Source: Lytechinus pictus (Eukaryota). Taken from it: 60,000 nucleotides of DNA. The translations under genes and the position numbers were made by a program. Of this stretch, positions 3,401 to 46,810 are shown in pieces. Where the stretch lies: NCBI RefSeq assembly GCF_037042905.1, contig NC_087245.1, positions 14,262,001-14,322,000 of the forward strand, in the 5' to 3' direction. The notes under the pieces were generated by a model that saw only the letters and a list, made by a program, of their open reading frames with translations, was not told where the DNA came from and searched no databases. Positions within the stretch are counted from its first letter, which is position 1. Each line of letters opens with the position of its first letter.

Positions 3401-6400
3401 TCATAAGGATAAAACACTCTCTAACACAGAATTGATGCCCTCCACAGATGATTTATCCTTTTCAATTTGAATTTGAATATCACTAATGGTTTGGTCATCA
3501 CATGTCATATTAAATTCCATGTGCTATTTCAACTTGACAGCCCCTTTAAATTTGTGTTACTTCATGACAATCAACAGGTTTTATCACATAATGAGCATTT
3601 GTCTTGTTTCAGCATTTCATTTTTTGGGTGGCAAATACAGGAACATGCAGTATATAAAATACAAATTATATTTTAATATTTAGTTAAAAGATTTGATGCC
3701 AATTTTTCTTCAACTTGGAAGAAAGTATTTTCTGTAGCTATACATGGGTGATTTGGTAAGCAATAATACAAGGAAGCATAATGGATGTTGTATTTTGGGG
3801 GTAAGTACAGGGTTTTTTTTTCTCTTGACATTCACTATGACTTTCAACTTCATTCTTGATGAAAGCGATAGCTAGCAAGAAACATGATTTGACAACTTTA
3901 ACCTATCGTCTACTGGAGCTGGGTGACCCCTGTGCAAATGTATATGTGCATGGGGATTACAAAAGTTCAGTATTAAGGAATATCCTACATATACACCATT
4001 TTACTGCTCAAAATCATGCGTTATAATCTACCTAAGACCTGTTTGCTCTACAACATTATTCTTGGTGAGCATAACTTGTGTCTTTCTTTGCAAGGTAATG
4101 ATACTCATAAGCATGACTGATTTAAAGGGAGAATTTTTTGAAGCCTCATTGCGTGAAGATTTACATGCATCTCTCTCTCTGTTTACTTCTTCTGGTGACA
4201 AAACATTTCCCTATTGGGGAATTCTCCCTATGTAAAGGCCCGGTCCCACTGCACTTAAGGATGCAAAGAGGATGTGAGACAGAAAAGAATCTTGCCACCC
4301 ATTGGAAAACATTATGTATCCATTGTGTACTCTTCGCATACATGTTTTCATTTGCTCTATATCCATCGAGCATCCATCCACTGTGATTTCATTGTTAGCC
4401 CATTTTGTCCATTGTCTGGAGCGGATGAAAACGGATGGAGCCCCCCCCAAAAAAAAAAAATTCTTGTTATGAATATGTTTTGTGTCCGTCAGCCAGTGGG
4501 ACCAGGCCTTGAGGGAACTAAAAAAGAGATAATTAGAATATGTATTGATTATCCAAGTAATTTTTAAATAAAGGTTAGACATTTAATATCTGGTGTTTTT
4601 TCCACAATGAACCTTGAGTAAAATAACTCTGAAATGGTGAATTAACATCATATATTTTCTTCTATTTTCTTGTCAAGGCTGACCTTTGCCCTTATATTGT
4701 ATATGTAAAATACTTCGTCACAACTAGACATTATCAATAATGTTTTGTCATTTTCTTTCCCTCAATTTCTCTGCTTTTGCGTGCTTTGGATTATCATGGT
4801 ATAGTAATTGTGGTTTTGTTTACAGTTCTGAGGAGGAAATTAGGTCACTGAGTTCAAGCTCAGATCCTCATGATATTGGAACTGAGTTGCCAAATTCTCA
4901 CTCAAATCTCCAAAATATTGAAAATGAGCCATTGACTTCTTGCTCAGATCCCCTGCATGCCAGAACTGAGTCCCCAGGCTCTTACTCAAATATTCAAGAT
5001 ATTGAAATTGAGTCACTGCGTTGTTTGAATCACCAAGATACCGAAACTGAGGTGCCAAATTCTTACTTAAATTTTCAAGAAATTGAAAATGAGCCACTGA
5101 GTTTTTGCTCAGATTCCAAACATGTTAGAAATGAGTCCCCAGGTTCTTGCTCAAATCACCAAGATATTGAAAGTGAGTCATTGAGTATTAGCTCAGATTC
5201 CATACATGTTAGAATTGAGTCCCCATGTTCCTGCTCAAATCATCAAGATATTGAAATTGAGTCATTTGGTTCTTGTTCAAATCAGCATATACCAGATTTT
5301 GATACTGAGCTACTGAGCTCTTGCTCAAATCTCAAAGATATAGAACTTGAGACACTAATTTCGTGCTCAAAACTTCAAGATATCAAAATTCAGTCATCAA
5401 GTTCTTTCTCAAATCTCCAAGATATTGAAAATGAGTTAATGAGTTCTTGCGCAAATCTCCCAAACATTAAAACTGAATCGGCAAGTTCTTGCACAAATCA
5501 CCAAGACGTTGTAACCAAGTCCCAATATTCTTGTTCACATTCTCACGAGATCGCGGACTTCTTGAATAAATTCCAAACTGAGGACGTAATGTCAAAGCCT
5601 GTAGGGTCGGTCCGACTCAGCAGAGCCAAGAGAGGATCGTTGCCAAATTTTTCTGAGGTTACACCACAAGATCACGACATCCTTCATGATACATATTCTC
5701 CCCTGTCACCCTATGGCCACAGTATCAGTTTTGAAGAGTTGTTCAGTCCAGATTTCTACCAAAATTGGAATTCACGTAGTTTGGGGTTGCCTGCATTTGA
5801 CTCTCCTAGGGCTAAAAGTCAGGAGCTTCCTCGCTCTGAAGAAAATGCAAAAGAAAGACACTTTGATGAACAGGATACGAGGGATATTTGTGAAAAATTT
5901 TGTTGTGAGTCTCAAAGCAGTAAAGAAAGTGTAGAAAGACAATCATATACTGATCATGTAGATCGCCATCCAATAGAAAATTTGTACCAGAATTATATGA
6001 AAGAATATCTGTACTCCTCTTTCGATGTAGAGACATCATCTTGTGAAGACGAATTAAACACTGGCGAGAGTTGTATTGAAGAGATGGGGAAGGAAACCAC
6101 TTTCTTGCTTACTAGTGGCAACCCGAAAGAACTAGTAATGCCTGTCCAGGAACTAATTCAAACCGGTTTTGATCTAGAACCAGAGGACTCGATATCTGAA
6201 AACCAAGAATCCAAGAAAAGTTGTTTATCTAATAGACCAACAGAACCTGAAGACTCAATGTCTGAAACCCAAGAATCCAAGAAAAGTTGTTTATCTAATA
6301 AACTAACAGAACCAGAAGACTCAACATCTGAAAACCAAGAACCTAAGAAAAGTTGTTTATCTAATAAACTAACAGAACCAGAAGACTCAATGTCTGAAAC

Positions 6401-9400
6401 CCAAGAATCAAAGAAAAGTTGTTTATCTAATAAACTAACAGAACCAGAAGACTCAACATCTGAAAACCAAGAACCTAAGAAAAGTTGTTTATCTAATAAA
6501 CTAACAGAACCAGAAGAATCAATATCTGAAAACCAAGAACCTAAGAAAAGTTGTTTTATCCAATAGATTGACAGAGTCTACAAACAGTGAAGAAAGTTTT
6601 GCACTGGTATCTCACACTACCCTAAGATGGAATAAAGCAGTTTTAATTATCCAAGAACAAATTCAAACTACTTTTTCATTTCTGAGCAAGAACCAAAGGA
6701 CTTGATATTCAAGAAATAATAATCATGGAAGGGTTGTTTTATCCAATATAGTTATTGAGAAAATCATTGCATTTTGGAATGTGATACGGTAGATTGACAT
6801 TCCAAACCTGAATATTTCATGTATATCGATTTGGTGGTGAGAATTATGTTCACCTTAATGAAGATGAACAAAGATATATTCAATGTTCACCATATGATAT
6901 AACTTTTCTATGATTTTATGATTTTTTTATCATCGGTAACATACAAAATTGCTGGAAACTATGAGGGTTCATGTGATGTAATCCATCTGTATAGTACAGT
7001 TATTCATATATCCCCCTAAATAGCTTGGGCATTAAGAAAAGGCAAAACATTTGCTTTCAATAGGTATTGGGCATTTCAAAATATGTTGCCCCATTTTAAT
7101 TCACATCGTTCCATTTCGAAACATGATGTGGGACTACTCATGATGATATATTTTTGAATTCATCCTTATTGGAGATTTACTATCACCGGTTCCATTTTGT
7201 TGTCTTTTTTTTTTTGTTTTTTTTTTGTTGTTATGTTATGTAATGTTTTTGTTTCATCTATCAGAGTCAGTCAGTTATTCCATCCGGATCTGCAATATAC
7301 GAATGTAGATTATTGGTCATGTTCATGCTTATGATTTATCCCAGTTAACCATGAAATATTGATATTTCTTTTCTGGCCACCATAGATTTGTCAGAGTTAA
7401 TGGTTGGGTGGTGGTAGATCATTTGGTCACAATTTCATCCTCCATTTACATGATGTTCGGATATTCAAGTTGAGTGGAGGGATATTATTTAGAGCATCAG
7501 TTTAACCATTCAAACTATAGCATATCTCGGTCTATAGTAACTGGAGTGAAATTTTCTCCCATTTTATTACCTTTTTAACGTGTTCTTATACCTATGGAAA
7601 ACCTAGATGAACAAAACCAAAGCATTTTTTTTTCTTCATGCGTCACCTTTTCACATAAAAGGTTCCTTGGTAAATATCATAACAACATGAATGTCTACAT
7701 TGAAAAAATTTACCAACATAGTTACATAGTTCACTAAATTATCAACAAAATCGCAGCATGGGGAAATCTGAAAAAAATGACACAAGGAATGAAGATATTT
7801 CAATTTCATCAGGTGATGGATGGATCATTCAATTTGATATGCTTACAATCATCTAACTTCATATGGAAGATGAACAACTTTACATTTTCTGATGATTTCT
7901 ATACTTATACAATGAGAGTCAAAAATGAATTCTAGTAGCTGAAATAGTAATCTCATTCATCATTCAAATTCTCATATGCTCCTTGCACTCAAAGAAATAC
8001 TGATTTGATGAAAGCACTGCTGGTTAATCAGCCATTCAAAATATATATGCACTCATCTGTTTTTACTTTATTTAGGGATCCTTGTGATATTTTATAGTGT
8101 GTATAGCAGAGGAAATATACCCTTTCATTTGAATAATTCTATCTTTAAATTGATAATCTTTGATGAATATTGTTCTTGCTCAAAAAACAGTAAAGCAAAC
8201 CTTTTACAACTGTTTCCACTCATTGTGTGTTGATTGAAATGTACATGTAACTGATTAACTTTTTTTGTGGAATATGGTCTCACCAAAATTGTGAAAAGGG
8301 GCACGTGTCTAAGATGGCAAAAACGTATTAAAAACAAACCATGTATGTTGCACTCAAACAAGTAAGAACAACTTTTATGTGTGATGTATCAACATGAATA
8401 TATCTGCACTGTAGATTATCTGATTGTACATACTTTGATGTATTGGATTTAGTCTAGATATAAAATATGTATTATAGGATGTACAGACCCTCTTTATTTG
8501 ATTAGAACATTCTTTATATCCCTAGATGGGTTTTCTCTTAATCGTACTGTCGGGTGATTTTAAGAGAAGTTTAGAGAAGAAATTTGGTATGCCAGCATTG
8601 ATTTGTTCCTCACTCTGGGCCATATTTCAAGACATTTTAATCTGTACAGAATTTGAATCAAAGCACTGTCTTTATTGTTGAGTTGCTACACATTAGCACC
8701 AATGGCAAACTGTTTGGTACATGTAGGTAATCAATGAATATGTCATTGTTCTCCTCCGTTGATGGGATTTTTCTTTTCATTTTTTGTTTACCAGCTTAAT
8801 AATAACATTTCATCACACCTTGGTGTATACAAACTATTTAGGGATTATTGACTCCCTTTTACCAGTTATACAAACAATATTTGGTATACTTGGAGAATGA
8901 TTTCTGGGAGAAAAGCATTTCATTCGTTCAGTGTAAGATTCACTAACTGTTTAAGTCATTATCAAGAAGCTGTTAACCAATCAAATTTCTGGAAATTGAT
9001 TTTAATCTCACTTGTAAATGATTTTAGCTGTTAGTGATCACTCCCAGACTACCAGAATTCTTCAATTTATAATAGTTATACTTGTAGACATTGGAAGGGA
9101 TGAAGGAGCATGCTCTCTTTGTTTAAGTATTGTTCCATTAAAGATTCTTATTGTCAAAAAGGCCCAGCCTTGATGCTTGGTGCAAGAAATACACAGCTTC
9201 AAACAGAACAAAATAAATCTAATATATTCATTCTTTCACTTTTGTATATTTCACCTTCATCAAAGGTGATGTATGGTAATAGCGTTCAGACTGAAAATAT
9301 TATACTTTTTAGGTATAAGAGCTCTTGCACTATACTTTTGTTTTTTTGGTAATTTGTTTGGCAATTGTAAAAAGTTGAAATTTGCCCAGCATGAGTTACT

Positions 9401-18400: not shown

Positions 18401-21400
18401 CCAAGGTCAAAGGTCATTTAGGGTCAATGAACTTTGGCCGAATTGGGGGTATCTGTTGAATTACCATCATAACTTTGAAAGTTTATGGATCTGATTCATG
18501 AAACTTGGACATAATAGTAATCAAGTATTACTGAACATCCTGTGCAAGTTTCAGGTCACATGATCAAGGTCAAAGGTCATTTAGGGTCAATGAACTTTGG
18601 CCAAATTGGGGTATTTGTTGAATTACAGCCATAAATTTGAAAGTGTGTTGGTCTAGTTCATAAAACTTGGACATAATAGTAATCAAGTATCACTGAACAT
18701 CCTGTGCGAGTTTCAGGTCACATGATCAAGGTCAAAGGTCATGTAAGGTCAATGAACTTTGGCCAAATTGGGGTATTTGTTGAATTGCCATCATATCTCT
18801 ATAAGTGTATTGGTCTAGTTCATAAAACGTGGAAATAAGAGTAACCAAGTATCACTGAACATCTTGTGCGAGTTATAGTAGTTTTCAAAATCAGCACTGC
18901 TGCTATATTGAATCGCGTGATGCAGGTGAGACGGCCAGAGGCATTCCACTTGTTCAATCTCATTACCACAATCCATTATCTATAAATTTGAATAGATCTG
19001 CAAAGTAATTAAAGAATTGTGTGAGCATGGCTATGAATGGGAAGATTTTTCAGGCTTATTGAAGGATGCAGACCAAACCTCTTCACTACCGAATTCTGTA
19101 ATTACCATAGGCATTGAACATGGTCAACGTGGTTCCAATATCTAATGGGTTAATCAGCAGAAGAATATGAAAAAGCATAACATATATTTAGAGGAGGAGA
19201 TTTACTAAGAATGTCAGTTTCACAGGACATGGACATGTATGTGTATAATTCTTTGTTTCCTCTCACAGCCCTTGCACGGAGAGAAAGCAACCTCTATTGG
19301 CAACATACTTGGAGTACAGATTTCAACATTACAAGAGAGCTGGGAAGGTATGATATTGAAGTGTATCAAACTCTTTACTTTTTTTCATTAGATGATTCAT
19401 TTTTATCATCAGCATCATCATCACCACCATTATCAGCAGCAACACCATCATCATCAACATCCTCTTCTACATCATCCTTATTATCACACCCACAGCCACA
19501 TTACCATCAGCATCGTTATCATCATCAACAGCACCATCCTCTTCCTCCTCCTCCCCGATCATCATCAGAAAAGCGTCACCATCATCATCACCATCCTCTT
19601 CTACATCATCCGCATTATCATGCCCACAACCACATTACCATCAACAGCACCATCCTCCTCCTCCTCCTCCCCGATCATCATCATCACCATCGTCTTCTAC
19701 ATCATCCTTATTATCACACCCACAACCACATTACCATCAGCATCGTTATCATCAACAGCACCATCCTCTTCCTCCTCCTCCCCGATCATCATCAGAAAAG
19801 CGTCACCATCATCATCACCATCCTCTTCTACATCATCCGCATTATCATGCCCACAACCACTTTACCATCAGCATCGTTATCATCAACAGCACCATCCTCC
19901 TCCTCCTCCTCCCCGATCATCATCATCACCATCCTCTTCTACATCATCCTTATTATCACACCCACAACCACATTACCATCAGCATCGTTATCATCAACAG
20001 CACCATCCTCCTCCTCCTCCTCCCCGATCATCATCATCACCATCCTCTTCTACATCATCCTTATTATCACACCCACAACCACATTACCATCAGCATCGTT
20101 ATCATCAACAGCACCATCCTCCTCCTCCTCCTCCCCGATCATCATCATCACCATCCTCTTCTACATCATCCTTATTATCACACCCACAACCACTTTACCA
20201 TCAGCATCGTTATCATCAACAGCACCATCCTCTTCCTCCTCCTCCCCGATCATCATCATCACCATCGTCTTCTACATCATCCTTATTATCACACCCACAA
20301 CCACATTACCATCAGCATCGTTATCATCAACAGCACCATCCTCCTCCTTTTTCCCCCCACCTCCTTTCCCCCTCATCATTATCATCATAACCCCAACCCT
20401 ACACCCCTCAAAATCCTTATTCTTATTATCCCAACAATCATTGTCATCATTTCAGAAGTATTCATTCAAACATTGTGCATGCTTTTCATGATGAAGTTTT
20501 ACTTCCAACTCTAAATTATAACATAAATAGATGTAATAAATTTTCGAAAATCAAACTAAGCCATGTGTAATAAACACCATATTTGTGGGGAGCAAGTGTC
20601 GATCTGTGCCCTCCTTTTTGTGAAAGCAGAACGTTTAGATATTCTTCTTAAAAACCTATTTCCACTTATAGGGGAAGGTTTTCATCCACACATGCCTGCA
20701 CCCGGTCTCAACAACAGAGAGTGCTAGCAGCAAAGTTCATCAGCAAGCGATTGATGGATCTTGAGCAGGTTCAGCATGAAGCGTCCATGATGCAGCCCCT
20801 TCAGCACCCGTTAATCTGTTCATTACATGCTACTTATGAGACTCATGGGCAGTATATCTTGGTCTTAGATCTGTGAGTATCTTGTCATTATGATACTAAA
20901 AATTAAATACATAGAATGCTTGAAGCGATTCAGTGCAATTTACAGAAAAACAAATAAATTGCAGGTTAGAGTTCCCTCAGGGTTGACCCTGCTTGAGCAA
21001 AGGCCCGCTCCCCCCCCCCCCCCATTTTATTTCTCTGACAAATTTTCTTTCAACCAATTAGATGCAAGGATATCTGTAGCATATCACAGTTGTTGGTGAC
21101 AATCGCTGGCAAAGAGCTTTGTGAAACAAGTCCTTCAAAAACTGTACTCTATGACTATTATTACAGTGGAGTAGATTGTTCTGAAGCTCATTTCAAAGCT
21201 CTAATGTTACTAATGTTGAAACTAATATGAGTTCTTATTTGCTAATCCGACATTGCAATGGAAATTTAAACTTTCACTTATTGTCATTGCTTCCTATGGA
21301 ATCAAAACGAAACTTGTGAATTCAATAATTAGTTAATATCCAACAAAGTATATATTTTTCAATAATTATAATACATGCCATTATAATTGAATATTGTACA

Positions 21401-30359: not shown

Positions 30360-33300
30360 TAATATACTTAATAAGTATATATATTGTTTTAAAATGTGAG
30401 AGGAATGCGGGATAAAACGAAAAAAAGCAAAATTACATCGTGGCTTCGTGCACAAAAGACAGATAGTTTGTTTACAAGAAACTTACTGGACGAAAGAACT
30501 AGAACACGAGATTTCATCACAAAGGAATTGTGCATGTTTTTTAGTAATGGGTCTAACCACTCTAAATATTATATAGAAATTACCTCTAGAAATTGTAAAC
30601 GTCTATGCCAGAAATGATGGAAGGACCGTTGCTCTTAGATTAATGTATAACAATTGCTGTTATTTATTATTGAATTTTTATGCGCAAACAAAGTATTCTG
30701 ATAAAGTCATATTTTTTAAAAACCTGCTCCGAAATTAAGAAACCTGAAGATATATTAATTTGTGGAGGTGATTGGAATACTACACAAACTTATTTAGATT
30801 CTCGTGGCACATCTTGTGTCTATAAATCACCCAATCATTTCAAGAAATTCATTCAAAAAATGAATTGGTTGATGTTTGGAGAAAATTGTATCCCACGAAG
30901 AAACAATTTTCTTGGCGACAGAGGTTTTTTGGTGTCTATTCTAGATTAGATTAAGATTACTGGCTAATTTTAACAACACTATATCCTTCAATGTACAGCA
31001 CTGATATACGCCCAGCACTAGCTTAATTGTGATCATAATGCCATTTCGCTAAAGTTGAATTTGAGTGGTATTGGGAAAGGAAAAGGTTATTGGAAAGTAA
31101 ACAATTCACACTTACTAGAACAAGACTTTATAATCTGTATTAAACATGTGATTAATAAAGTAAAAATGGAATTCATGAATGAAAGTCCACTGCTTTTATG
31201 GGAAATGTGTAAAATTAAAATAAAAGAGGTCACTGTGAAGTATTCTAAACAAAAATAAGAAGAAAGAAAATGTTATTTTACAAAGTAACAAGATGAGTTC
31301 AATAAACAGAGTGAAAAGGCCGATGAAAATCCAACCAAGAAAGAAATTGATAAGTTAGAAACAATCAGAAATGAATTAGATAAACTTTACACATATAAGT
31401 GCAAAGGTGTGTATATTAGAGCTAGGGAGAAATGGATGGAGTCTGGCGAAAAGTCGTCCAAGTATTTTTTTTTTAAAGAAACCATAAATGGCATGAAAAA
31501 AAGAGATTAACTGTATTGTACAAAACGGTAAAACATTTACAAAGAAAACAGAAATTTTGAAGATTATTAATAATTATTTCAGTAAATTGTACAAAAATAG
31601 CTATAACGATAATGAAATGAACATCAAATCATACTTAAAAATATTGAATTGAAAGTATTTGATGAGAAGGATGCACTAAGTTGTGAGGGACTGGTAACCG
31701 AAAATGAGTGTTATAAAGCTTTGCTTTCAATGCAAAATAACAAGGCACCTGGTTGCGATGGATTGAGTTCGGAGTTTTACAAATGTTTTTGATTTGCTAA
31801 TCGACAGTCTAAATGAAGGATACGTTCAAGGGGGTTTGACAGAAAGTCAAAGACAAGGTATACTCACACTGTTATTGAAAAAGGGGATAGTAGATTATTA
31901 GACAATTGGAGGCCAATCTCATTATTAAATATAGACTATAAGATTTTAGCGAGAGTTTTTTCACAACGACTTCAACGAGTAATCCATAAAATTGTTTCGT
32001 TTTGACCAAACAGGTTATATTAAGGGGCGTTCAGCCTCAGATAACTTAAGGTTGGTACAAGATGTTATTGATTATTGCAAAATTTTGGAACAAGGATTGG
32101 TACTTTTTCTAGACGTCAAACAAGTATTTGATTGTGTGAGACATAGCTTTCTTTTCGAAACCCTGTCAAGATTAAAATTTCAAAAATTCATTTATCCAAT
32201 GGGCTAAAGTATTTTATAAAAACGCTGGAGGCAAAGTAATAAATAATGGTTGGATTTCAAAACAGTTTAAGATAGAAAAGGGTGTAAGGCAAGGGTGCCC
32301 TCTACCGGCTTTGTTATTTGTTTTAGTTGTTGAAGTAATGGCGTCACAGATAAGGTCAAACAAGATAGTCAGTGGTATTAAGATTCCATTCCACAAAATA
32401 CCATTTTCAAAAGAATTAAAGATCTCACAGTTAGCAGACGACACCGCTCTTTTTGTTAATTCCGTCCAGGCAGGAAATGTCGCAATTCATGATGTTATTA
32501 AGTTCGGGGATTATTCTGGCTTAAAACTTAATTTAGACAAAACCAAAGTTATGCCACTTAATATAAATTATAATCAAACAAATGGTATATGCAGCTTGGA
32601 ATGGTCTGATGAACCAATTAAATATCTTGGGGTTGTATTATGCAAGAACACAAATGACTTTAATGTCCTTAATTGGTCTGTAAAGATAGATACAATTAAA
32701 CGTATTATAAATCTTTGGAAGATGAGTAATTTGACATACTATGGGAGAATAGTTATTATAAAAATGTTACTTGTATCACAGTTAATATACTTATGCACAT
32801 GCTACATCATGCCCCAAAATTATATCAAAGAACTTAATAAAATAATTCATTCATTTTTATGGAATTCTAAAAGAGAAAAAGCGAAAAAGAGCTTCCATTA
32901 TTAATTCACCCCAATATGGGGGTTTGGGTATGATTGACATAAATTCTAGATTAAAATCACTCACACTTTCCTGGTTACCAAAAATTGTAAGAGGTGATGA
33001 ACCACCATGGAAATATATTTGTGAGTTTTGGTTACATAAATTAGGCGGTATACCATTATCCATTCAATTTAATTGTCCTCCAGTAGACATGATCAAATTA
33101 TGCAAAAAAATATTCATTACCTACATTTTATACAGACTCACTTCATGGGTTGAACTTCACTATCTTAATATATTCGAAGTAACTCAATTTGAAAATGAAA
33201 TCATATGGAATGATTCAAATGTAAAACCTGAAAACAAGTTATTGTATTTCAGAAAATGGTACGATAAGGGTATAGTAAAAGTACATCATTTAATTGAAAA

Positions 33301-34980
33301 TGGATCATGGAAAAACTCTGAAAGTATTACAGACATACTGTCGATGAATTCTCTTTGTATCTTATTTCAATATGCTAAAATTAAAACCGCTTTTCCAAAA
33401 TATTGGTTCGATAAGTTGAACACTGCTCAGCTTGAAAATCACGGTGATCAACGAATGCGAAACGATACATTTATTCAAATTAAAACCGGTGACTCAATTG
33501 ACATTACAATATAAAAACAAAACAATTCTACACATATTTTGTATATTTAAAAAAGAATTTACACCCAACGGTGTTATATTTTTGGCAAGATAGGCTATCA
33601 CTTGCAGAAGATTATGATTGGAGCAAATTGCTAAAATTTAAGTTTGGAAAATTATTTAATAACAAAGTTAAACAATATAATTTCAAATTGCTGCATCAGA
33701 TTTTGCCGTATAAAGAGAATTTAGTTCGATGGAATATCACATCAGACATGACTTGTAACCTGTAACCATTGTAAACAAATTGAAACTCTAGATCATGTTT
33801 TGTTGCATTGTCCACATGTGAATTTATTTTGGCAGAAACTACGGTATTTCATTAAGATCCAATTTAATGTGAATATTCAAATTAATGAGAAACATTATTG
33901 ATTGGCCACGATGTTGAAAATGAAAACATGGCTTTTCTGAATGTAATTTTGGTTTTCGCACAATATACGATTTACTTTTTAAAAATTCAGTTATTTTTCT
34001 ATGTTGTCAGATTTCAAGAGAGAATTAGTCATTAAATTTGAGATTTCTTGAAAAGAGTAATAAGATAAGATTAACAGAAAAACAGTACAATGAAATCAAA
34101 AGCTTGTGAAATGTGAAACCAATTGTATATATTGTTTGTGTTTGTTTATTGATTGCAATGTAAAAGAGTAATAAGATAAAAATAACAGAAAAACAGTACA
34201 ATGAAATCAAAAGCTTGTGAAATGTGAAACTAATTGTATATATTGTTTGTGTTTGTTTATTGATTTTAATGTAATAATACATCTGATGAGGACAAACAAA
34301 ATCGTCACTCATTTCGGATTAACTAATAATGAAAAGTTAATGGTGGTGCATGATAATAGCAAGTTAGGTTATGGTATCTGTTGAGAAGAAGAAATACTGT
34401 TAATATGAAATGTTGATGTTATACAACTTCTGTCTTTCTTGACTTTATATACATACAGGCTGAGAATTTATTGCCCAGCAGTAGAAAAGGGGCTCTTTAT
34501 TTTTTTTGGGGGGGATTGCCCTATATACCCTTCCAATTAACTGTAAGAGAGAGAGATGGTTTATGTATCCAATTAAATTTTAAATATGCATAATGTAAGT
34601 ACATTAAGATTATTATTATTTCATGAGACAAGGGTATGTTAGAGATTAAGTAAGAAATATTCAACTTTGAAAAAGTGGCTGGATATGATTTGATGATCAA
34701 TTATGAAAAATAACATTATTTAAAAAACAATATTCATATATCTATTGTTTGTTATTAAGCTATATTTTTTGCATTTTATATTATTGCAGTATATTTTTTC
34801 TGAAATTTCATCATGTTCTATTTCGTGTCGTTGTTTTCTTGTAATAGAAGTCAATGTATATTTATTTTGCAATGTAATAGTGTGATCATTTAGAGATTGA
34901 TTCATTTTTTTGGTGTAAAAATATGTCAGTGGGATTTGTTTTGAACCCGTTAACCATGAGTAAATTCAACAATTAAAAAA
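30360..34980 (+). mobile_element. Decayed L1/Tx1-clade non-LTR retrotransposon (ORF2: AP endonuclease, RT, C-terminal Cys/His motif) with AT-rich 3' region; ends approximate
   Basis: Frameshifted fragments NVRGMRD, ILICGGDWNT, DHNAISL, GKGYWKVNNS, KAPGCDGLSSEFY, NWRPISLLNIDYKILA, DQTGYIKGR, GVRQGCPL, QLADDT, KYLGV, ETLDHVLLHC. Confidence 0.9.
34051..34272. repeat. 111-bp tandem duplication in LINE 3' region
   Basis: aaaagagtaataagataa...gtttgtttattgatt at 34051 and 34162. Confidence 0.85.
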
Positions 34981-36032
34981 ACTATTAATGATATGAATAA
35001 GAACTTATAGGCTAGTAAAGAGGGATAATTATTAAAAGGATCTGTACGAAATAAGGTTTTTGCACTGTTATTTTTATTCTTGTAGTTCTTATACCAAGGA
35101 GATCCGCGATGAAGTTGAATGTATCACGTCAATCGATAATTTTTATTTTTTATAGTTGGTGAAATTGTGACTATATTATTTCACATAATAAAAATATGGC
35201 AGCTTGCATAGTAAAAAAAAATATTGTTTTTAAACAATTAACCCAAGAAGTGACTGTTATAGACTTCCCCTTCAAAGAAACCACACCCCAAAAATCAACT
35301 TTGAGGTGCCAATCGGGGAAAATATGGGTGAAAAACCTTTTCGGCCCTCCTCCCCTATTAGCTAAAGATGGATCCGCCCCTGAATATTCGAGTATGTACT
35401 TACTAAGATCCTTTATTGCTCTCAGTACAAGATAGGCTATTGACAGTAGGGCGATTACATAAGTGTCGTACGGAACATTTTGATAACAATTTATAGTCTC
35501 TTAGCCGAATGCTTGACCAATAAAACTTTCTTTTTTTGTCAATGATAAAGTTAAAGCGGGTAATGATGTGAAAACTGATAACCAACAAAGAATGTTTGGG
35601 TACGGGTGAATTAAAGATGAAAATGTTGTGTGTCGTACAAGACTCAGCAATGTCCCATACGACACGCAATATTTCGACCTATAATTCACCCATACTCTAA
35701 CATATTTTTGTTGGTTGTCATAACTTTACATAATTACCCAGTAGTACTTTAATATGACCAGAAAACAAATTGAAGTTCCTCGTTTGTTTGGACACCAGGT
35801 TGAAAAGTGTTGTGAAAATGGAAGATTTTTCTAGCGTGGAATCGTCCAGTAAGACATAATGCCTTCGGATCTTAGTGGAGCTAAGCTCCATGCTATATCT
35901 GTCGAGTTGCTTCCTTGTCTCATAAATTCTGCTGCAGACTGCATTCAAAATAATGAATAAATACTAAATGAAAAAATACAAATGATCAATCAATATGGGG
36001 GTCAGTAGTTATGGGTTAGACCTCATACCAAT

Positions 36033-36330
36033 TTGACCTTTGACCTACTTAACCTTTGACCTTTGACCCATGACCTTTGACCGCATGACCTTTGACCCCA
36101 ACTTCCGGTCACTGTTGACCCCGTGACCCCACCTTCCGGTCAATCATGACCTTTGACCTTTGGGTACGCGGTAAACAGGAAATTGGATAATGGAGCGCGG
36201 GAAGCGATTTTAATTGGATAATGGAGCGCGGGACGCGATTTTAATTGGATAATGACTCCGCGTGGGGACGCCATCTTAATTGGATAATGAAGCGCAGGAC
36301 GCGATTTTAATTGGATAATGACTCCGCGTG
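36033..36330. promoter_or_regulatory. Subterminal motif array: TGACCTTTGACC repeats, CTTCCGG x2, five 31-35-bp AATTGGATAATG units (mirrored at ~40609-40906)
   Basis: Read directly; motifs match nuclear-receptor half sites/DR1, ETS core and CCAAT box; function inferred. Confidence 0.5.
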
Positions 36331-37418
36331 TCGACCTTATCGCACGATGCAGCGACGTTGCACGGGCATATGATACGATGCACAAAACAGACGTATGATT
36401 TATACATGCAGTTTCCTATCGAAAAAAGTTGTCTTTCTCCGCCTACCGGCGGATATGTCAAGTGCCGCGCATGACGTCACCTGCTACGTAAGCACCGTGA
36501 TGTCATCCCAGGGAATTACCCTTTACCCGGTATTGCACCACCGTGGCGCAATCGTCACGTATAGGATACGATGCACAAAATAGACGTATGATTTCTATAC
36601 AGTTAAAAAGTGAAAAGTTATCTTTCTCCGCCTACCAGCGGATATGTCAAGTGCCTCGCGGTTCACGAATCGATCGCCCCATGCACGGCCAACGCGCGTC
36701 ATTGAACTTGGGATATCCTATTCAAGGTGAAAGCCGGCTCTCTCTGTCTCTTATTACAACAATTATTGGTAATCCAACATGTGATTATAATCATGACATC
36801 TCAAGCTCTACTCATTCCAGACTTTCCCCCATCAAAACTCTCTGACTTTTCCATACCGTTTTGTACATACTTTTCATTTAACTCACATGACCTGCACGGC
36901 TCTCTGACCCGCAAAAGTATGTATATTGAAACCCGCAGACGACTCCTTTCAATCAACTTCATTCATCCGCAGTACAGATGGTGATAACATGAAACACTAT
37001 ACAGTCAAGGATGATTCTTTATTATTACTATCATTTATTCTATTCCATTTCAATGTAGATAGGTTCAATTAGTGTATAAACAGCAGATTTTGATACAAAG
37101 GTAAAAATAATGTAAGATATGTTCTCAAATTACGTTGTCACAACAAAATAATTAACTGTTCATTGTTAATATTAAAGTGAAGTTCTCGTTTTTTTCTTTT
37201 CCTTCGCTTAACTTATTGGATTGTAACACATGTCTATGGATGGCATTCAGAAAATATGAACACAATGAAGTTCAAACTGTCATTTATGCCCGCATTTATG
37301 TTGACGGCGTTTTCTTGGATTATTCGACAAGCTGATGTTTGTGCCTTTAGTTGTAGGTTCCATCTTCACCCTCCGTTTCTTCTCCACCATCATCATTATC
37401 GTCATCGTCACCTTGATA

Positions 37419-37997
37419 CTAGAATAAACCATCGAATTGTGAACCATGCCTGGCTAACACTCTCTGTACGGCTTTCCGGAATTCCATGCCATTCTCTAAT
37501 CTTTCCGTGAGATCGGACACGATTTCACGATTGATGTCAGCGTCTTCGAGGTACACGTTCTGCTGCAAGAACTGAGAGTACAGATCGAAAAAGATGCGTT
37601 TGACTGCCCACATTAGTTTCACGTGAGCCTTTGCTTTAGCGTCTTCTTCTTCCATTCCTTCTGAGATGTATTTCTGATATTTTTCGTCTCTCAAGTCCTT
37701 GGTGGCCGTCATGGCTTGCTCTAACCATCCTCGATAAGCGAGGTTGTCTTCAGTTTCTTCCATGTTTGCTGTCATTGACGATTCGTGTCCATCGCTTTCT
37801 GATACGCTCGTTTCGGAATCACCGTTGGATTCTTCAACATTTTGCATTTGAGAGGATGGGTCGGATTCTTCATCTTCACTCGTTTCTTCTCCAGTATCAT
37901 GCTCAATTTGTTCATGCCTCTGCATGTTATATTTCCTACTAAAAGTTTTATCGCATCGTGAACAAGCGTAACGGTTGGACATATCCAATATATTCAT
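37419..37997 (-). CDS. C2H2 zinc-finger + acidic linker + helical-domain protein (192 aa), left-arm copy
   Basis: ATG MNILDMSNRYA-C-x2-C-x12-H-x4-H (CSRCDKTFSRKYNMQRHEQIEH); intronless; identical to right-arm copy. Confidence 0.75.
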   Translation of the reverse strand: MNILDMSNRYACSRCDKTFSRKYNMQRHEQIEHDTGEETSEDEESDPSSQMQNVEESNGDSETSVSESDGHESSMTANMEETEDNLAYRGWLEQAMTATKDLRDEKYQKYISEGMEEEDAKAKAHVKLMWAVKRIFFDLYSQFLQQNVYLEDADINREIVSDLTERLENGMEFRKAVQRVLARHGSQFDGLF

Positions 37998-38090
37998 GCT
38001 GACTCGATGATTATTTGTTGGGAAATGAAGAAAATTAACGTTCAAACTTGTAATTATACGTAATCATGAAACGCGCGCGAAGGTACTTTG

Positions 38091-38410
38091 ATTCTTACGG
38101 ATTTTTACGCATTCTTACGGATTCTTACTCATTCTTACTCATTCTTACGGATGTTTACTCATTCTTACTCATTCTTACGGATTCTTACTCATTCTTACGG
38201 ATGTTTACTCATTCTTACTCATTCTTACGGATTCTTACTCATTCTTACGGATTCTTACGGATTCTTACTCATTCTTACGGATGTTTACGGATTCTTACGG
38301 ATGTTTACGGATTCTTACGGATGTTTACGGATTCTTACGGATTTTTACGGATTCTTACGGATGTTTACGGATTCTTACGGATGTTTACGGATTCTTACGG
38401 ATTTTTACGG
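38091..38410 (+). repeat. 10-bp satellite x32 (ATTCTTACGG / ATTCTTACTC / ATGTTTACGG variants)
   Basis: Exact 10-bp phase in the listing. Confidence 0.97.
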
Positions 38411-38428
38411 ATTAATCAATGCTTTCAT

Positions 38429-38561
38429 ATAATCTCAAGGAAAATATGTTCATCCACGCTGGAATGACCCATGCAGCATGGGTCATTCCAAATAATCTCA
38501 AGGAAAATATGTTCATCCACGCTAGAATGACCCATGCTGCATGGGTCATTCCAACGTGGAT
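38429..38561. repeat. Central 63-bp direct repeat x2, each ending in a 31-nt hairpin
   Basis: ataatctcaaggaaaatatgttcatccacgct(g/a)gaatgacccatgc(A/T)gcatgggtcattcca starting at 38429 and 38492. Confidence 0.95.
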
Positions 38562-38842
38562 CCGTAAGGATCCGTAAACATCCGTAAACATCCGTAAACA
38601 TCCGTAAGAATCCGTAAACATCCGTAAGAATCCGTAAAAAATCCGTAAGAATCCGTAAGAATGAGTAAGAATCCGTAAGAATCCGTAAGAATGAGTAAGA
38701 ATCCGTAAGAATGAGTAAGAATGAGTAAACATCCGTAAGAATGAGTAAGAATCCGTAAGAATGAGTAAGAATGAGTAAACATCCGTAAGAATGAGTAAGA
38801 ATGAGTAAGAATCCGTAAGAATGCGTAAAAATCCGTAAGAAT
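38562..38842 (-). repeat. 10-bp satellite, inverted copy (~28 units)
   Basis: ccgtaagaat / gagtaagaat / ccgtaaacat units. Confidence 0.97.
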
Positions 38843-38935
38843 CAAAGTACCTTCGCGCGCGTTTCATGATTACGTATAATTACAAGTTTGAACGTTAATT
38901 TTCTTCATTTCCCAACAAATAATCATCGAGTCAGC

Positions 38936-39514
38936 ATGAATATATTGGATATGTCCAACCGTTACGCTTGTTCACGATGCGATAAAACTTTTAGTAGGAA
39001 ATATAACATGCAGAGGCATGAACAAATTGAGCATGATACTGGAGAAGAAACGAGTGAAGATGAAGAATCCGACCCATCCTCTCAAATGCAAAATGTTGAA
39101 GAATCCAACGGTGATTCCGAAACGAGCGTATCAGAAAGCGATGGACACGAATCGTCAATGACAGCAAACATGGAAGAAACTGAAGACAACCTCGCTTATC
39201 GAGGATGGTTAGAGCAAGCCATGACGGCCACCAAGGACTTGAGAGACGAAAAATATCAGAAATACATCTCAGAAGGAATGGAAGAAGAAGACGCTAAAGC
39301 AAAGGCTCACGTGAAACTAATGTGGGCAGTCAAACGCATCTTTTTCGATCTGTACTCTCAGTTCTTGCAGCAGAACGTGTACCTCGAAGACGCTGACATC
39401 AATCGTGAAATCGTGTCCGATCTCACGGAAAGATTAGAGAATGGCATGGAATTCCGGAAAGCCGTACAGAGAGTGTTAGCCAGGCATGGTTCACAATTCG
39501 ATGGTTTATTCTAG
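38936..39514 (+). CDS. C2H2 zinc-finger + acidic linker + helical-domain protein (192 aa), right-arm copy
   Basis: First ATG at 38936 (the ORF track starts at an upstream TTG); candidate AATAAA at 39894. Confidence 0.75.
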   Translation: MNILDMSNRYACSRCDKTFSRKYNMQRHEQIEHDTGEETSEDEESDPSSQMQNVEESNGDSETSVSESDGHESSMTANMEETEDNLAYRGWLEQAMTATKDLRDEKYQKYISEGMEEEDAKAKAHVKLMWAVKRIFFDLYSQFLQQNVYLEDADINREIVSDLTERLENGMEFRKAVQRVLARHGSQFDGLF

Positions 39515-41260
39515 TATCAAGGTGACGATGACGATAATGATGATGGTGGAGAAGAAACGGAGGGTGAAGATGGAACCTACAACTAAAGGCACAAACATCA
39601 GCTTGTCGAATAATCCAAGAAAACGCCGTCAACATAAATGCGGGCATAAATGACAGTTTGAACTTCATTGTGTTCATATTTTCTGAATGCCATCCATAGA
39701 CATGTGTTACAATCCAATAAGTTAAGCGAAGGAAAAGAAAAAAACGAGAACTTCACTTTAATATTAACAATGAACAGTTAATTATTTTGTTGTGACAACG
39801 TAATTTGAGAACATATCTTACATTATTTTTACCTTTGTATCAAAATCTGCTGTTTATACACTAATTGAACCTATCTACATTGAAATGGAATAGAATAAAT
39901 GATAGTAATAATAAAGAATCATCCTTGACTGTATAGTGTTTCATGTTATCACCATCTGTACTGCGGATGAATGAAGTTGATTGAAAGGAGTCGTCTACGG
40001 GTTTCAATATACATGTACATACTTTTGCGGGTCAGAGAGCCGTGCAGGTCATGTGAGTTAAATGAAAAGTATGTACAAAACGGTATGGAAAAGTCAGAGA
40101 GTTTTGATGGGGGAAAGTCTGGAATGAGTAGAGCTTGAGATGTCATGATTATAATCACATGTTGGATTACCAATAATTGTTGTAATAAGAGACAGAGAGA
40201 GCCGGCTTTCACCTTGAATAGGATATCCCAAGTTCAATGACGCGCGTTGGCCGTGCATGGGGCGATCGATTCGTGAACCGCGAGGCACTTGACATATCCG
40301 CTGGTAGGCGGAGAAAGATAACTTTTCACTTTTTAACTGTATAGAAATCATACGTCTATTTTGTGCATCGTATCCTATACGTGACGATTGCGCCACGGTG
40401 GTGCAATACCGGGTAAAGGGTAATTCCCTGGGATGACATCACGGTGCTTACGTAGCAGGTGACGTCATGCGCGGCACTTGACATATCCGCCGGTAGGCGG
40501 AGAAAGACAACTTTTTTCGATAGGAAACTGCATGTATAAATCATACGTCTGTTTTGTGCATCGTATCATATGCCCGTGCAACGTCGCTGCATCGTGCGAT
40601 AAGGTCGACACGCGGAGTCATTATCCAATTAAAATCGCGTCCTGCGCTTCATTATCCAATTAAGATGGCGTCCCCACGCGGAGTCATTATCCAATTAAAA
40701 TCGCGTCCCGCGCTCCATTATCCAATTAAAATCGCTTCCCGCGCTCCATTATCCAATTTCCTGTTTACCGCGTACCCAAAGGTCAAAGGTCATGATTGAC
40801 CGGAAGGTGGGGTCACGGGGTCAACAGTGACCGGAAGTTGGGGTCAAAGGTCATGCGGTCAAAGGTCATGGGTCAAAGGTCAAAGGTTAAGTAGGTCAAA
40901 GGTCAAATTGGTATGAGGTCTAACCCATAACTACTGGGGTCTTTCATTTTACGCCATTTTATCTTAATATTGAGTTATTTTGAACACTGCAGGGGTAGAC
41001 TTGTTAAATCCTGTGTCTTATTAGAAATGATACGACTCCTTTTCTGTCTAAAAATGGGTGGCACTTTTTCCCACTTTATACGATGTACAGTTTATAATAA
41101 AGAGGGATGAGATGAGTTTGATTGAATTGTACTAACAGACATCATTATAGAGAGATGAAATGGATATAAAATCGATCACGTTAATGGCTGCTTTAGTTGG
41201 GCAATTAAGGGCGTTACCAGGTTTTGTGCACCATCTAATACATATTACATAGAGATAATT

Positions 41261-43080: not shown

Positions 43081-44943
43081 CAGGGGCGGATCCAGCCTTC
43101 GCCAATAGGGAGGGGGGCGGAAATTTGTTTCAGCCATATTTTCCCCGATCGGCAGCTCGAAGATGATTTGTGTTTGTTTCTTTGAAGGGGTAGTCCTCAT
43201 AAGTCACTTCTTAGCTTTATTCTTATAAATTCATATATAATATCATAATCCTTATTTATAGGATGCGAGCGCGAAGCGCGAGCTAAATTTTTGGAAATTT
43301 TATGTATTTTTTCCTAAAATTTAAACATTCTGGGCAATGTTTGTTATCCTGAAAAAAATGTGTATGCAACTTAATAATTACTACAAACGCAAAGCGCGAG
43401 TAGAAATGAACTGATGGAAAAGATACCTGTTAAAGACTGCGTGCATTTAGCATTTAACAATCAAATAATGCGAGCGCGAAGCGCGAGCTGATTTTTTTTT
43501 TACATTTTCACCTAAATAATGGAAATTCTAAGCACTTTTTATAACTCAAACAGAATAGGTATATAAGTAGACAATTGATGCGAGCGCGAAGCGCAAGCGG
43601 AAAATTTCGAGATTTAGTCCTATAATATTTACTGAACGAGACACTCTATTCATGTTTTGTAAATCATGAAAAGGATGAGTATTAATAATGCGAGCGCAAA
43701 GCGCGAGCAGAAAATTTTTATACACGTTTTGAACTGGTACCTGTTAAGGACTGCTTGCACTTAGCCATGAAGGCGTTACATATATCAATAATCAAAAAAT
43801 GCGAGCGCGAAGCGCGAGCTGAAAATTTTAGAAAATTTCTAAAAGAATAAATATGCGCGCGCGTTTCATATTTAGACCTAGAATCTAGGCATTCTAAATA
43901 CATCTTTAATCATGAAACTTTGATATTCCGATCTGAAAAAAGAGTCAATTACAGCTTTATATTTCAAGCACTTTGTAGGAAAATTGTAAGGTGGATATGG
44001 ATTGCACCTAAAAAAAAGAGCTAAAATTTTCATTATTATTACTTTGAGTTTTAACATAGGACCGGGACATCCTTACGACATGTCATGAAAATGATGACTA
44101 TCTTCCTATTCCTCTTGCTAAGCGCGAGATGAAACAAAAGGGACAATTTAATTATTAAATTAATATCATATTTATTCATGCCTAATGAGGGCGCGAAATC
44201 TGATGATATTATGGCATAAAAACTGAACATTTCACTTTTGTAATTATGAATAGGATGCATCAGTTAATATATTTTTAACCATTAATGCGAGCGCAAATCG
44301 CGAGCTAAATTTTTTTATAAACTGTCATAAGGGGATTTTAATTAGTTTGTTGTATAATCAATATTGAAACATAATTTTATTTACATAACTCGCCGATCAA
44401 AATGCCAGCGTGCAGCGCTAGCTGATCGACACGTCTTGACAATCAGACCTGAAAAGGGATATTTTGAAAACTTTATGGAATACACGAAAATAATAGGTAC
44501 CTGATAAATCAAAATTTGCGAGCACGCAGCGCAAGCAGCAAATGTTAATAAAATAATCAGACCATAAAACCATTTTTACAGAGCACTTTTTAAAAATCAA
44601 TTTGTAAATCACACAAAATAATGAAAGTTCGATTTCCGAGACGAAATATGTTTTGTATATTGACTTCCAAACTTGATATTTGAGCTCCATATTGAACAAG
44701 ATATGTAAATCACCTAACAGGCAATGCGAGCGCGAATCGCGAGCAAAAATTTCGTATAGTGGCACGAAAGGTTCTTTTTATTTTCAAGTCTTCCCCTCAT
44801 CTTATTTTATGCACTCGTCATCCTTCTCTTCTTTTTCTCCTCTCTTTTCCCTCCTTTTTCCTTCTTTCTTTCCCTTTTTCTTTTTTTTGCTCCGCCAATA
44901 GGGGGGGGGGGGGGGCCCTCGGCCTCCCTGGATCCGCCTATGG
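43081..44943. mobile_element. Non-autonomous DNA element (hAT-like ends) with many GCGAGCGCGAAGCGCGAGC motifs
   Basis: caggggcggatccag ... ctggatccgcctatg ends; motif recurs more than 10 times, also at 29170-30330 and 45870-46680. Confidence 0.55.
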
Positions 44944-46810
44944 GGACAAGGGGTGGGAAAATTTGACAAGCAAAAAAAAAGGTTATCATCCCCCAAAGTA
45001 CGGTCATCTCGTCCCAACTCATCCAAAAATACATGTTTTATTTCGATTTAGAATGATGTATTTCTTACCATCATAAAAGACAAAAAATAGTAGGGGGGAC
45101 ATTTGATATTGTGTCCCCCCTACTATTTTGAGTAGGGGGGACACGTCCCCCATGTCCCCCCTGGGATTTCCGCCCATGGGGGGGACACAATATCCCATGT
45201 CCCCCTTACTATTTTTGGTCTTTTATGATGGAGAAAAATACATCACTTCACAATCGAAATAATACATGTATTTTGGACTAGATGATCTTACATTTTGGGT
45301 GAAAACCTTTTATTTTTTTTGGCTTGTCAAATTTTCCAGGCCCTGGTTACCCCTACCTTTGGGGATAGATTTCCGCCCAAGCCTATTAAAGCTGGACCCG
45401 CCCCTGATAATTACAAAAAAAAATGAATATCAGAAAATTTTCAACTCGCACTGAGCGCTTGCTTTTTGATTAGAAAGGTATTAGAATAAAGGTGGTTTTG
45501 CTCGAAGAAAAATTTGACAAGCAAAAATTAAAAAAGGTTTTCATTGCAAAATGAAGGTGATTTTAGTTACATTTCAGCTCTTTAGCATACCTTCCAGATA
45601 TCCATGGGTGCTGCGTATGGCGAACAACACACGAAGCACCACAGCATCCCCGTTTCCCAGGGTCGTGCCCATGTCAGGTTTCGCCAATAGGGGGGGTGGT
45701 GTTCAAAAAAAAATATTTCTATCCACAATTTTCCCGATCAACCGCTAAAAGCCGATTTTTGTTGTTTATTTCTTTGAGGGGATAGTCGAAACTAAAGACA
45801 TATTTTAAATTTCATGTTTGCTCATTCTTACAAACAAAATAAGGTATCTCATAAGACTTAAACAAATAATGCCGAGCGCAAAGCGCGAGATGAATTTTTA
45901 AAATTACGATCTGAAAACTCGATATTCTTCGTGCTTTGTAATAATGAACAGGATTAGGTATTTAAATAAACAATTGATGTGTGCGCGAAGTGCGAGCTGA
46001 AGATTTTTGATAATTCGGTTAGAAAATTTGACATTCTCAGCAATATTCTTTGTAATCATGGACAGGATATGTATCTCACTAAACAATTGATGAGAACGCA
46101 AAGCATGAGGTGAATCTAATCTGAAAACTGGGCATTTATTAAAGCGTTCCTTGTAATCAGTAAAATGATACACTATCTTAGCACGAACCTACAATTTTTT
46201 ATATTCCGATATGCAAACTGAGCATTTTAAAGCATCAAAAATTTTGCGCAAAATTCATATTTGAAATATTAGATTTTTTTCATTAATGTGATTTAAAGTC
46301 TCCTATAATAAGGTTAAATTGTAAAGTGTGTGGGAATTTTCTGTCCTGTGTTTCATTGACGGCAATATGAGTTAGTGCATCATCGTACCCTTAACCTGAA
46401 GTATAGGGCATGCCTATGTTTTTTGTACAAATTATCCTCACTGCCATAAAGATTCCAGGGTATGACACCCCCCCCCCCCACTCGCACACACATTCACGCC
46501 AGTGTATTAAAATGTTTTAATTCGATATTATCAGTTATAACTATATCTAAAGGTCATTGGTGTCATACAATTCATAAAATGGGCGTATTACTCTCATGAA
46601 TCAGCGGATTACAATATTCGCAATAAGCTAAACGTATAGGGATTTGTCATAGCCAAATTGTGTGAGCGCGTAGCGCGAGCAGAATTTTGTTATATTCACA
46701 ATTTTTTAGTAAATAGGAACATGATTCTTATCTCGCTATGAAACAAAATAAGAAAAACTCGAATCTGGAGCAGAATAAGTTTGAACATATCGACTTTAGA
46801 TCTACTATAT

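Follow-up and report, generated by a model that had tools for sequence, protein, structure and literature searches.

A nearly palindromic Polinton-type element of Lytechinus pictus with a duplicated central hairpin and a putative copy-back origin

Flip and flop hairpins are known from the termini of parvoviruses, and a giant palindrome seeded by a short inverted repeat is known from the rDNA of Tetrahymena. The other systems closest to the present locus are cited here from excerpts of the papers. In the flip/flop telomeres of vaccinia virus, an imperfect hairpin lies beside tandem repeats and forms the centre of a head-to-head junction (PMC8956199). The linear plasmid pELF1 of Enterococcus has one protein-capped end and one hairpin end, the latter appearing in the assembly as a perfect inverted repeat about a 4-base loop, and this design is backed by physical evidence (PMC6863802). 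In yeast, template switching inverts the spacers of inverted repeats with arms over 9 bp, so that the loop of a perfect inverted repeat is turned to its complement without a dedicated enzyme; these spacers are 2-5 bp long and lie in chromosomal genes (PMC8604942). Copy-back or snap-back defective viral genomes, described mainly for negative-strand RNA viruses, carry one end copied twice through re-annealing of the nascent strand, are almost completely self-complementary and depend on a helper (PMC13506859). Polintons (Mavericks) are 15-20 kb long, with (AGT)2//(ACT)2 or (AG)3//(CT)3 termini, a 6-bp target-site duplication (TSD) and long terminal inverted repeats (PMC8097293, PMC4196379). The racket model of their replication, in which a single strand folds into a racket and is copied by a protein-primed polymerase, was proposed from sequence alone and is summarised in PMC4196379.

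A multi-kilobase Polinton palindrome has been reported before in an animal genome. The Polinton-1-like insert upstream of the Chinook salmon gh1 gene is about 20 kb long with a 10-kb palindrome, and the available part of that paper mentions it in passing, without centre anatomy or mechanism (PMC2584663). In the literature searched, much of it available in part, we found no account of the centre or junction of a palindromic Polinton; Repbase, the original Polinton papers and supplements may describe such families. Nothing on such a centre was found in the accessible portions of 10.1101/2022.07.12.499685, 10.1101/2024.01.15.575659 and PMC3014272, and the accessible portion of 10.64898/2026.07.28.741278 concerns palindromes at termini rather than at a centre. 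A palindrome-containing Polinton insert is therefore already known, as far as the excerpt from the salmon paper goes, and the addition made here is a candidate turn-around point, located by means of a non-mirrored relative.

In the window analysed here (the whole 60,000-nucleotide stretch of Lytechinus pictus DNA), an insertion was found that is nearly all palindromic, and both hairpins of interest sit in its loop (Table 1). The element starts with AGTAGT, finishes with ACTACT and is flanked on each side by GGGGTC, and the DNA outside is unrelated. It is a real insertion with Polinton termini, a TSD and near-identical arms of about 2.4 kb; both hairpins fall in its asymmetric centre, which measures 146 bp (38414-38559). 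The termini and the 6-bp TSD bore out the original prediction that the host element has a Polinton end. The unique arms differ by only one substitution (36936/39997) and one 6-bp indel (40015-40020). The left and right 10-bp arrays match over their outer 19 units and diverge beyond.

The element differs from described Polintons in its size of 4.9 kb and in an inverted repeat that makes up about 97% of its length. None of the pPolB, integrase, ATPase, protease and capsid genes of an autonomous Polinton was found among its ORFs, and the ATG-started ORFs of at least 100 aa are a pair encoding a 192-aa protein and two frames traversing the arrays. Since this gene set is lacking, the element was classified as a non-autonomous derivative and not as an autonomous member. 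Among its ATG-started and stop-to-stop frames, and by Pfam search, neither a nickase nor a resolvase ORF was found. Foldback (FB/TU-type) transposons have 8-9-bp TSDs and termini of the cut-and-paste type; this identity was rejected, because the TSD here is 6 bp and the termini are of the Polinton type.

Table 1. Coordinates of the element and its parts in the window.
Feature	Coordinates	Strand	Remarks
Target-site duplication, left copy, GGGGTC, 6 bp	35998..36003	+	20 bp outside not mirrored
Palindromic non-autonomous element, (AGT)2...(ACT)2 termini	36004..40935	.	4,932 bp; sequence comparison
Left unique arm, 2,086 bp	36004..38089	+	mirror of 38844-40935
Subterminal TGACC-rich repeats	36032..36158	+	mirror 40781-40907; 9-mer in common with central hairpin
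Subterminal 31/66-bp repeats	36181..36330	+	mirror 40609-40758
Mirror copy of 192-aa ORF	37419..37997	-	DNA identical, early stop included
10-bp array, left, 32 units	38090..38413	+	outer 19 units as in right array
Putative fold-back junction, GATT common to array unit and lead-in	38410..38413	+	within 8-bp palindrome 38410-38417
Non-mirrored lead-in, 15 bp	38414..38428	+
Unit 1	38429..38491	+	31-bp spacer, 31-bp perfect hairpin H1 (38460-38490, centre A 38475) and 1 base
H1:H2 stem	38452..38561	.	38452-38490 with 38523-38561, 37/39 paired, A38475 opposite T38538
Unit 2	38492..38554	+	like spacer and hairpin H2 (38523-38553, centre T 38538); only in present copy
Imperfect palindrome about H2, 47 bp, two mismatched pairs	38515..38561	.
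10-bp array, right, 28 units	38560..38843	-	sequence comparison
Right unique arm	38844..40935	-	sequence comparison
192-aa ORF: C2H2 zinc finger, acidic linker, helical domain of no named family	38936..39514	+
Target-site duplication, right copy, GGGGTC	40936..40941	+	sequence comparison

The 63-bp unit occurs twice in direct orientation, as had been predicted, and two of its 63 positions are not the same in both copies: G at 38461 corresponds to A at 38524, and A at 38475 to T at 38538. The descriptions of H1 as a perfect 15-bp stem about a central A, and of H2 as the same stem with one mismatch, a central T and a longer reach, were also confirmed; the extension of H2 contains a second mismatch that the earlier account lacked. 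H1 and H2 are the only hairpins with arms of at least 13 bp and loops of 0-3 bases in the 60 kb, and 10 block-shuffles of the window yielded none. The duplicated hairpin is a real, non-chance feature. Two miRNA-precursor matches were obtained from Rfam, both below threshold (31.8 vs 99 and 28 vs 83 bits), and this identity was set aside since such scores arise with any hairpin.

The hairpins had been placed at the palindrome axis. They do lie within the central loop of the element, but the symmetry about their apices fails to extend into the arms, as mirror symmetry reaches outward for 15 bp from the apex of H1 and for 23 bp from that of H2. The spacer is on the left of both hairpins, and there is a one-sided insert of 41-46 bp. 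The hairpin apex is thus not the axis of a head-to-head junction of the kind found in poxvirus and parvovirus telomeres.

The best local symmetry in this region is between H1 and H2. The predicted fold of the H1:H2 stem has an energy of -42.3 kcal/mol, compared with -33.8 kcal/mol for the halves apart, and a pair probability of 0.998. Because A38475 stands opposite T38538 in a stem with 37 of 39 positions paired, the A/T difference renders the two hairpins mutually complementary. Two substitutions within 63 bp have p = 0.0004 at the arm-to-arm rate (0.009 at the upper 95% rate), and the chance that one of the two differences is central and complementary is about 1%. These values favoured a templated change over random substitution. 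They also count against slippage that duplicated the unit in tandem, with two independent point mutations thereafter, one of them central by chance. That sequence of events would accommodate the second difference (38461/38524) within the same 63 bp, and a single-stranded loop, which escapes the homogenisation seen in the arms, may have a higher mutation rate, but we consider it rather unlikely. The central A/T difference probably arose by templated correction or loop inversion, since H1 and H2 pair mutually. The comparable inversions in the yeast excerpt concern spacers of 2-5 bp (PMC8604942), whereas the element has a 1-bp centre and a duplicated, mutually pairable pair. The idea that A and T merely reflect the mirror symmetry of the two arms was dropped, because the spacer is directly repeated and the relatives have a single unit.

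To compare the centre with that of relatives, sequencing runs were searched, and 20 of 24 contained part of the half-element, with shares up to 0.50; none of these 20 is listed as RNA. Four runs were aligned to 38400-38510 and gave five records, three of them contigs, which drop rare variants. One contig came from run X1, two contigs from X11 and two raw reads, possibly of one fragment, from X23, while X3 (share 0.47) gave no record on this interval, which is no proof of absence. In all five records the alignment listing omits differences near the ends of the aligned pieces, the central base included. Depth was 0 at 38492-38510 in all four runs, and the second unit was entered by none of the four records that reach the hairpin.

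One X11 contig (38419-38491, with 3 other letters) contains the lead-in, the spacer, one full hairpin, the right junction and the right array. The other is aligned at 38410-38447 and continues leftward for at least 255 letters unlike the array. Of this unrelated stretch 30 letters are visible, the visible end resembling by eye a degenerate lead-in repeat, and a 20-letter piece of it had no match in the window at 3 mismatches. The two contigs overlap by 29 aligned bp and have similar depths (37.5 and 33.9), suggesting one continuous non-mirrored form. Since the lead-in is joined there to non-mirrored DNA, the turn-around was placed at 38410-38413. On this comparison it likely lies 46-50 bases from the hairpin, at a 4-nt match to the 10-bp array. 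The non-mirrored form may be that of an autonomous Polinton, and it may be the older form.

The 130-bp X1 contig consists of left array, lead-in, spacer, a hairpin broken at 38482 and right array, and its lead-in carries a local 12-bp duplication. Its right loose end is the reverse complement of 38395-38413 (19 of 19 letters). It may represent a second palindromic centre with one damaged hairpin; its depth is 8, the library is possibly RNA and a polymerase jump is possible. The X1 and X11 relatives are thus in the single-unit state, truncated in X1, and since the four records that reach the hairpin show one unit, the 63-bp unit was tandemly duplicated in the present copy or lineage. With at most one unlisted difference each, neither the X1 nor the X11 contigs have both letters of copy 2. 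One X23 read spans exactly 38452-38488, the range that an arm of copy 2 would match in mirror alignment; this single read hints at the right junction and the G/A variant in other members of the family. The hairpin is retained in the window and in two labelled organisms, and such persistence would also fit a function. The exact 27-letter hairpin pattern was found at no locus in the viral contigs and none in the metagenome contigs, and a protein-based locus search of the contig collections gave 356 and 410 pattern matches, none confirmed.

Hairpins provoke polymerase slips and mis-mapping, and the 63-bp duplication, or its two differences, might be an artefact that assembly or polishing created in the middle of so large a palindrome, given that none of the four other records reaching the hairpin has the duplication. 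However, the element has a TSD, unique flanks and small differences between its arms, its junctions recur in other runs, and genuine tandem duplications are made in the family. An artefact is in our judgement very improbable. The short tandem duplications in the family are the 12-bp one in X1, the 6-bp arm indel and a 107-residue repeat in the homolog P0002.

Taken together, we think it fairly probable that copy-back gave rise to the element as a defective, non-autonomous derivative of a Polinton and that the hairpin pair is a secondary, copy-specific feature of its loop. One terminus is present twice, inverted, and the interior is lost, as in a copy-back genome; the junction at 38410-38413 fits as well, on the evidence of one non-mirrored contig. 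The identity of both arms over the ORF, early stop included, counts for this origin. Judging from one relative, the parent end would have had the order terminus, zinc-finger gene, 10-bp array, one 31-bp hairpin, spacer, lead-in and interior. Synthesis from the parent terminus would have halted about 46-50 bases beyond the hairpin, and the nascent 3' end would have re-annealed to a finished array unit via the 4-nt match and been extended back as far as the terminus, so that both ends of the product were the same. Copying and insertion of the element may then be carried out by the protein-primed polymerase and integrase of a helper Polinton, following the published Polinton model; helper dependence is suggested by the lack of replication genes together with the TSD. 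Each displaced strand would snap back on itself into a giant hairpin tipped by the small one, and the arms would thereby be kept identical. The 63-bp unit would later have been tandemly duplicated in the present copy or lineage, after which H1 and H2 would have paired and the central base been altered by mismatch correction in the H1:H2 stem. Alternatively, the templated step could be inversion of the loop via template switching, with no nicking or resolution of a hairpin telomere.

Copy-back and recombination between two parent molecules would lead to the same product. The idea that the short inverted repeat itself seeded the palindrome was rejected, as the element has retained sequence lying past the hairpin. 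The element shares with copy-back genomes, as the excerpt describes them, the doubled end and the near-complete self-complementarity, and differs in being DNA, in its TSD-flanked integration and in carrying a gene in each arm (PMC13506859). Wholly palindromic derivatives with a mappable turn-around are the kind of error product that the racket model predicts, so the junction and the homogenisation of the arms may provide an indirect, testable record of Polinton copying. They also suggest that defective-interfering satellites accompany Polintons. Hairpin pairing probably produced the A/T pair as a minor side effect, whose import would be greater if true flip/flop isomers exist.

The original prediction had read the A/T difference as flip and flop forms from the resolution of a hairpin end, and the palindrome as a hairpin-ended molecule turning at the hairpin apex. 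Neither claim found support. The limited symmetry about the apices, the like-sided spacers, the single-unit relatives and the non-mirrored relative, which puts the turn at about 38410-38413, speak against this reading. A more detailed version posits a molecule of half length, capped by protein at one end and closed by a hairpin at the other, in which nicking flips the central base, the window holding a flip and a flop form joined by unequal exchange. The A/T difference does fall exactly at the axis, which has a probability of about 1% by chance, and a nick within the 15-bp stem would flip the central base alone. A single-unit centre would presumably put the hairpin at the tip of the folded strand. 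In addition, tandem repeats lie between the hairpin and the first ORF, like those of vaccinia in the part of PMC8956199 available, and pELF1 shows that a replicon can combine a hairpin at one end with a protein cap at the other (excerpt of PMC6863802). The hint from the X23 read that G/A is a family variant means that the two units could derive from two variant molecules.

Several observations weigh against such a processed tip. Not only does the symmetry end at 15 and 23 bp, but the asymmetric bases flanking the stem (38459/38491) are also unflipped. Cuts at the apex would regenerate perfectly symmetric junctions, whereas the window and the X1 contig retain the one-sided spacer. The lead-in and spacer were found in a non-mirrored context, and the hairpin is shortened in one contig. 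Strand-switch joints were listed in none of the four runs, a weak point given the few records. Resolution of the vaccinia type needs a resolvase and a symmetric junction; no ORF for a nickase or resolvase was found in the element itself, and, compared with the telomeres described in the excerpt of PMC8956199, it has two hairpins in direct repeat, a one-sided spacer and one inverted base. The pELF1 plasmid has the design originally proposed for this locus, but it is bacterial and has physical evidence behind it in the excerpt (PMC6863802), whereas the element is known here only from its sequence. We therefore regard a processed tip as unlikely. It is likewise doubtful that palindromic Polinton satellites are hybrid replicons, with one protein-primed end borrowed from the helper and, opposite to it, a conserved 31-bp hairpin that undergoes nicking or resolution. 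That their mobile form is a 2.5-kb hairpin-ended molecule with a flipping tip, both isomers being caught in tandem here, is not likely either. If true, adenovirus-like and parvovirus/poxvirus-like end chemistry would be united in one animal mobile element.

The hairpin contains two opposed TGACCC half-sites, and it could chiefly be a symmetric protein-binding site. The factor would be the one bound to the subterminal TGACC repeats and would serve either packaging or the zinc-finger gene promoter, the central base being unconstrained and drifting. A 9-mer common to the hairpin and the terminal repeats occurs 6 times in the element and not once in the remaining 55 kb, and retention of the hairpin in two labelled organisms would agree with such a role. 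The motif test was post hoc and weak, as a 9-mer in common with the terminal 200 bp was also found for 260 of 20000 shuffled hairpins (p ~0.013). Moreover, a binding site concerns the purpose of the hairpin rather than the origin of A/T and is compatible with the copy-back explanation. On these grounds we consider it quite unlikely as the account of the feature. The subterminal region at 36100-36480 (mirror 40460-40840) also contains recurring ATTGG boxes, two CCGGAAGT/CCGGAAGG-type sites and one TGACGTCA palindrome, which we take to be reminiscent of host-factor sites in the terminal repeats of adenovirus. A direct repeat of 47 bp is present at 36424 and 36613.

The 192-aa ORF stops about 30 residues earlier than its full-length homologs. 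Since the early stop is common to both arms, one arm served as the template for copying or correction of the other. Pfam matches of the protein were to zinc-finger models only. Comparison with PHROGs gave best E values of 0.003-0.07 and no clear family, and the Atlas was blank. The predicted model has a mean pLDDT of 79.9; it had no viral structure match at E <= 0.001, and its best match (Z 7.3) was to generic helices. The helical domain had no family or fold match in these searches, hence no tie to Polinton genes. The closest named relatives of the protein are Lytechinus pictus proteins.

A sister subfamily of the zinc-finger protein, with a full length of 225 aa (the cluster of P0004), comprises 5 near-identical proteins under 6 Lytechinus pictus accessions. 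Two of its loci, LOC135157286 and LOC135157287, adjoin each other and have records of equal length, a pattern that the two arms of a further palindromic copy would produce. In P0012, P0013 and P0067 the first 43-92 residues of the ORF are fused to unrelated gene models, two of which carry names (hydroxylysine kinase-like and sialyltransferase-like); these fusions reflect either exon capture from element copies or annotation joins. The homologs P0005, P0006, P0009 and P0171 are on contigs of 10.6, 16.7, 15.0 and 25.9 kb, sizes within or near the range of autonomous Polintons. The 107-residue repeat of P0002 is internal.

Other repeats were observed elsewhere in the window. Long ORFs traverse minisatellites at 4740-6566 (42/84-bp and 66-bp units) and 19211-20491 (111-bp units), and the protein of the former had no match in a Pfam search. 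At 32338-33514, two adjoining ORFs, the first with a reverse-transcriptase fragment (Pfam RVT_1), are probably a decayed LINE. A short repeat with GCGAGCGCGAAGCGCGAGC as its core, followed by A/T runs, is scattered over 43251-46705 in about 11 copies, with a spacing of about 110 bp upward.
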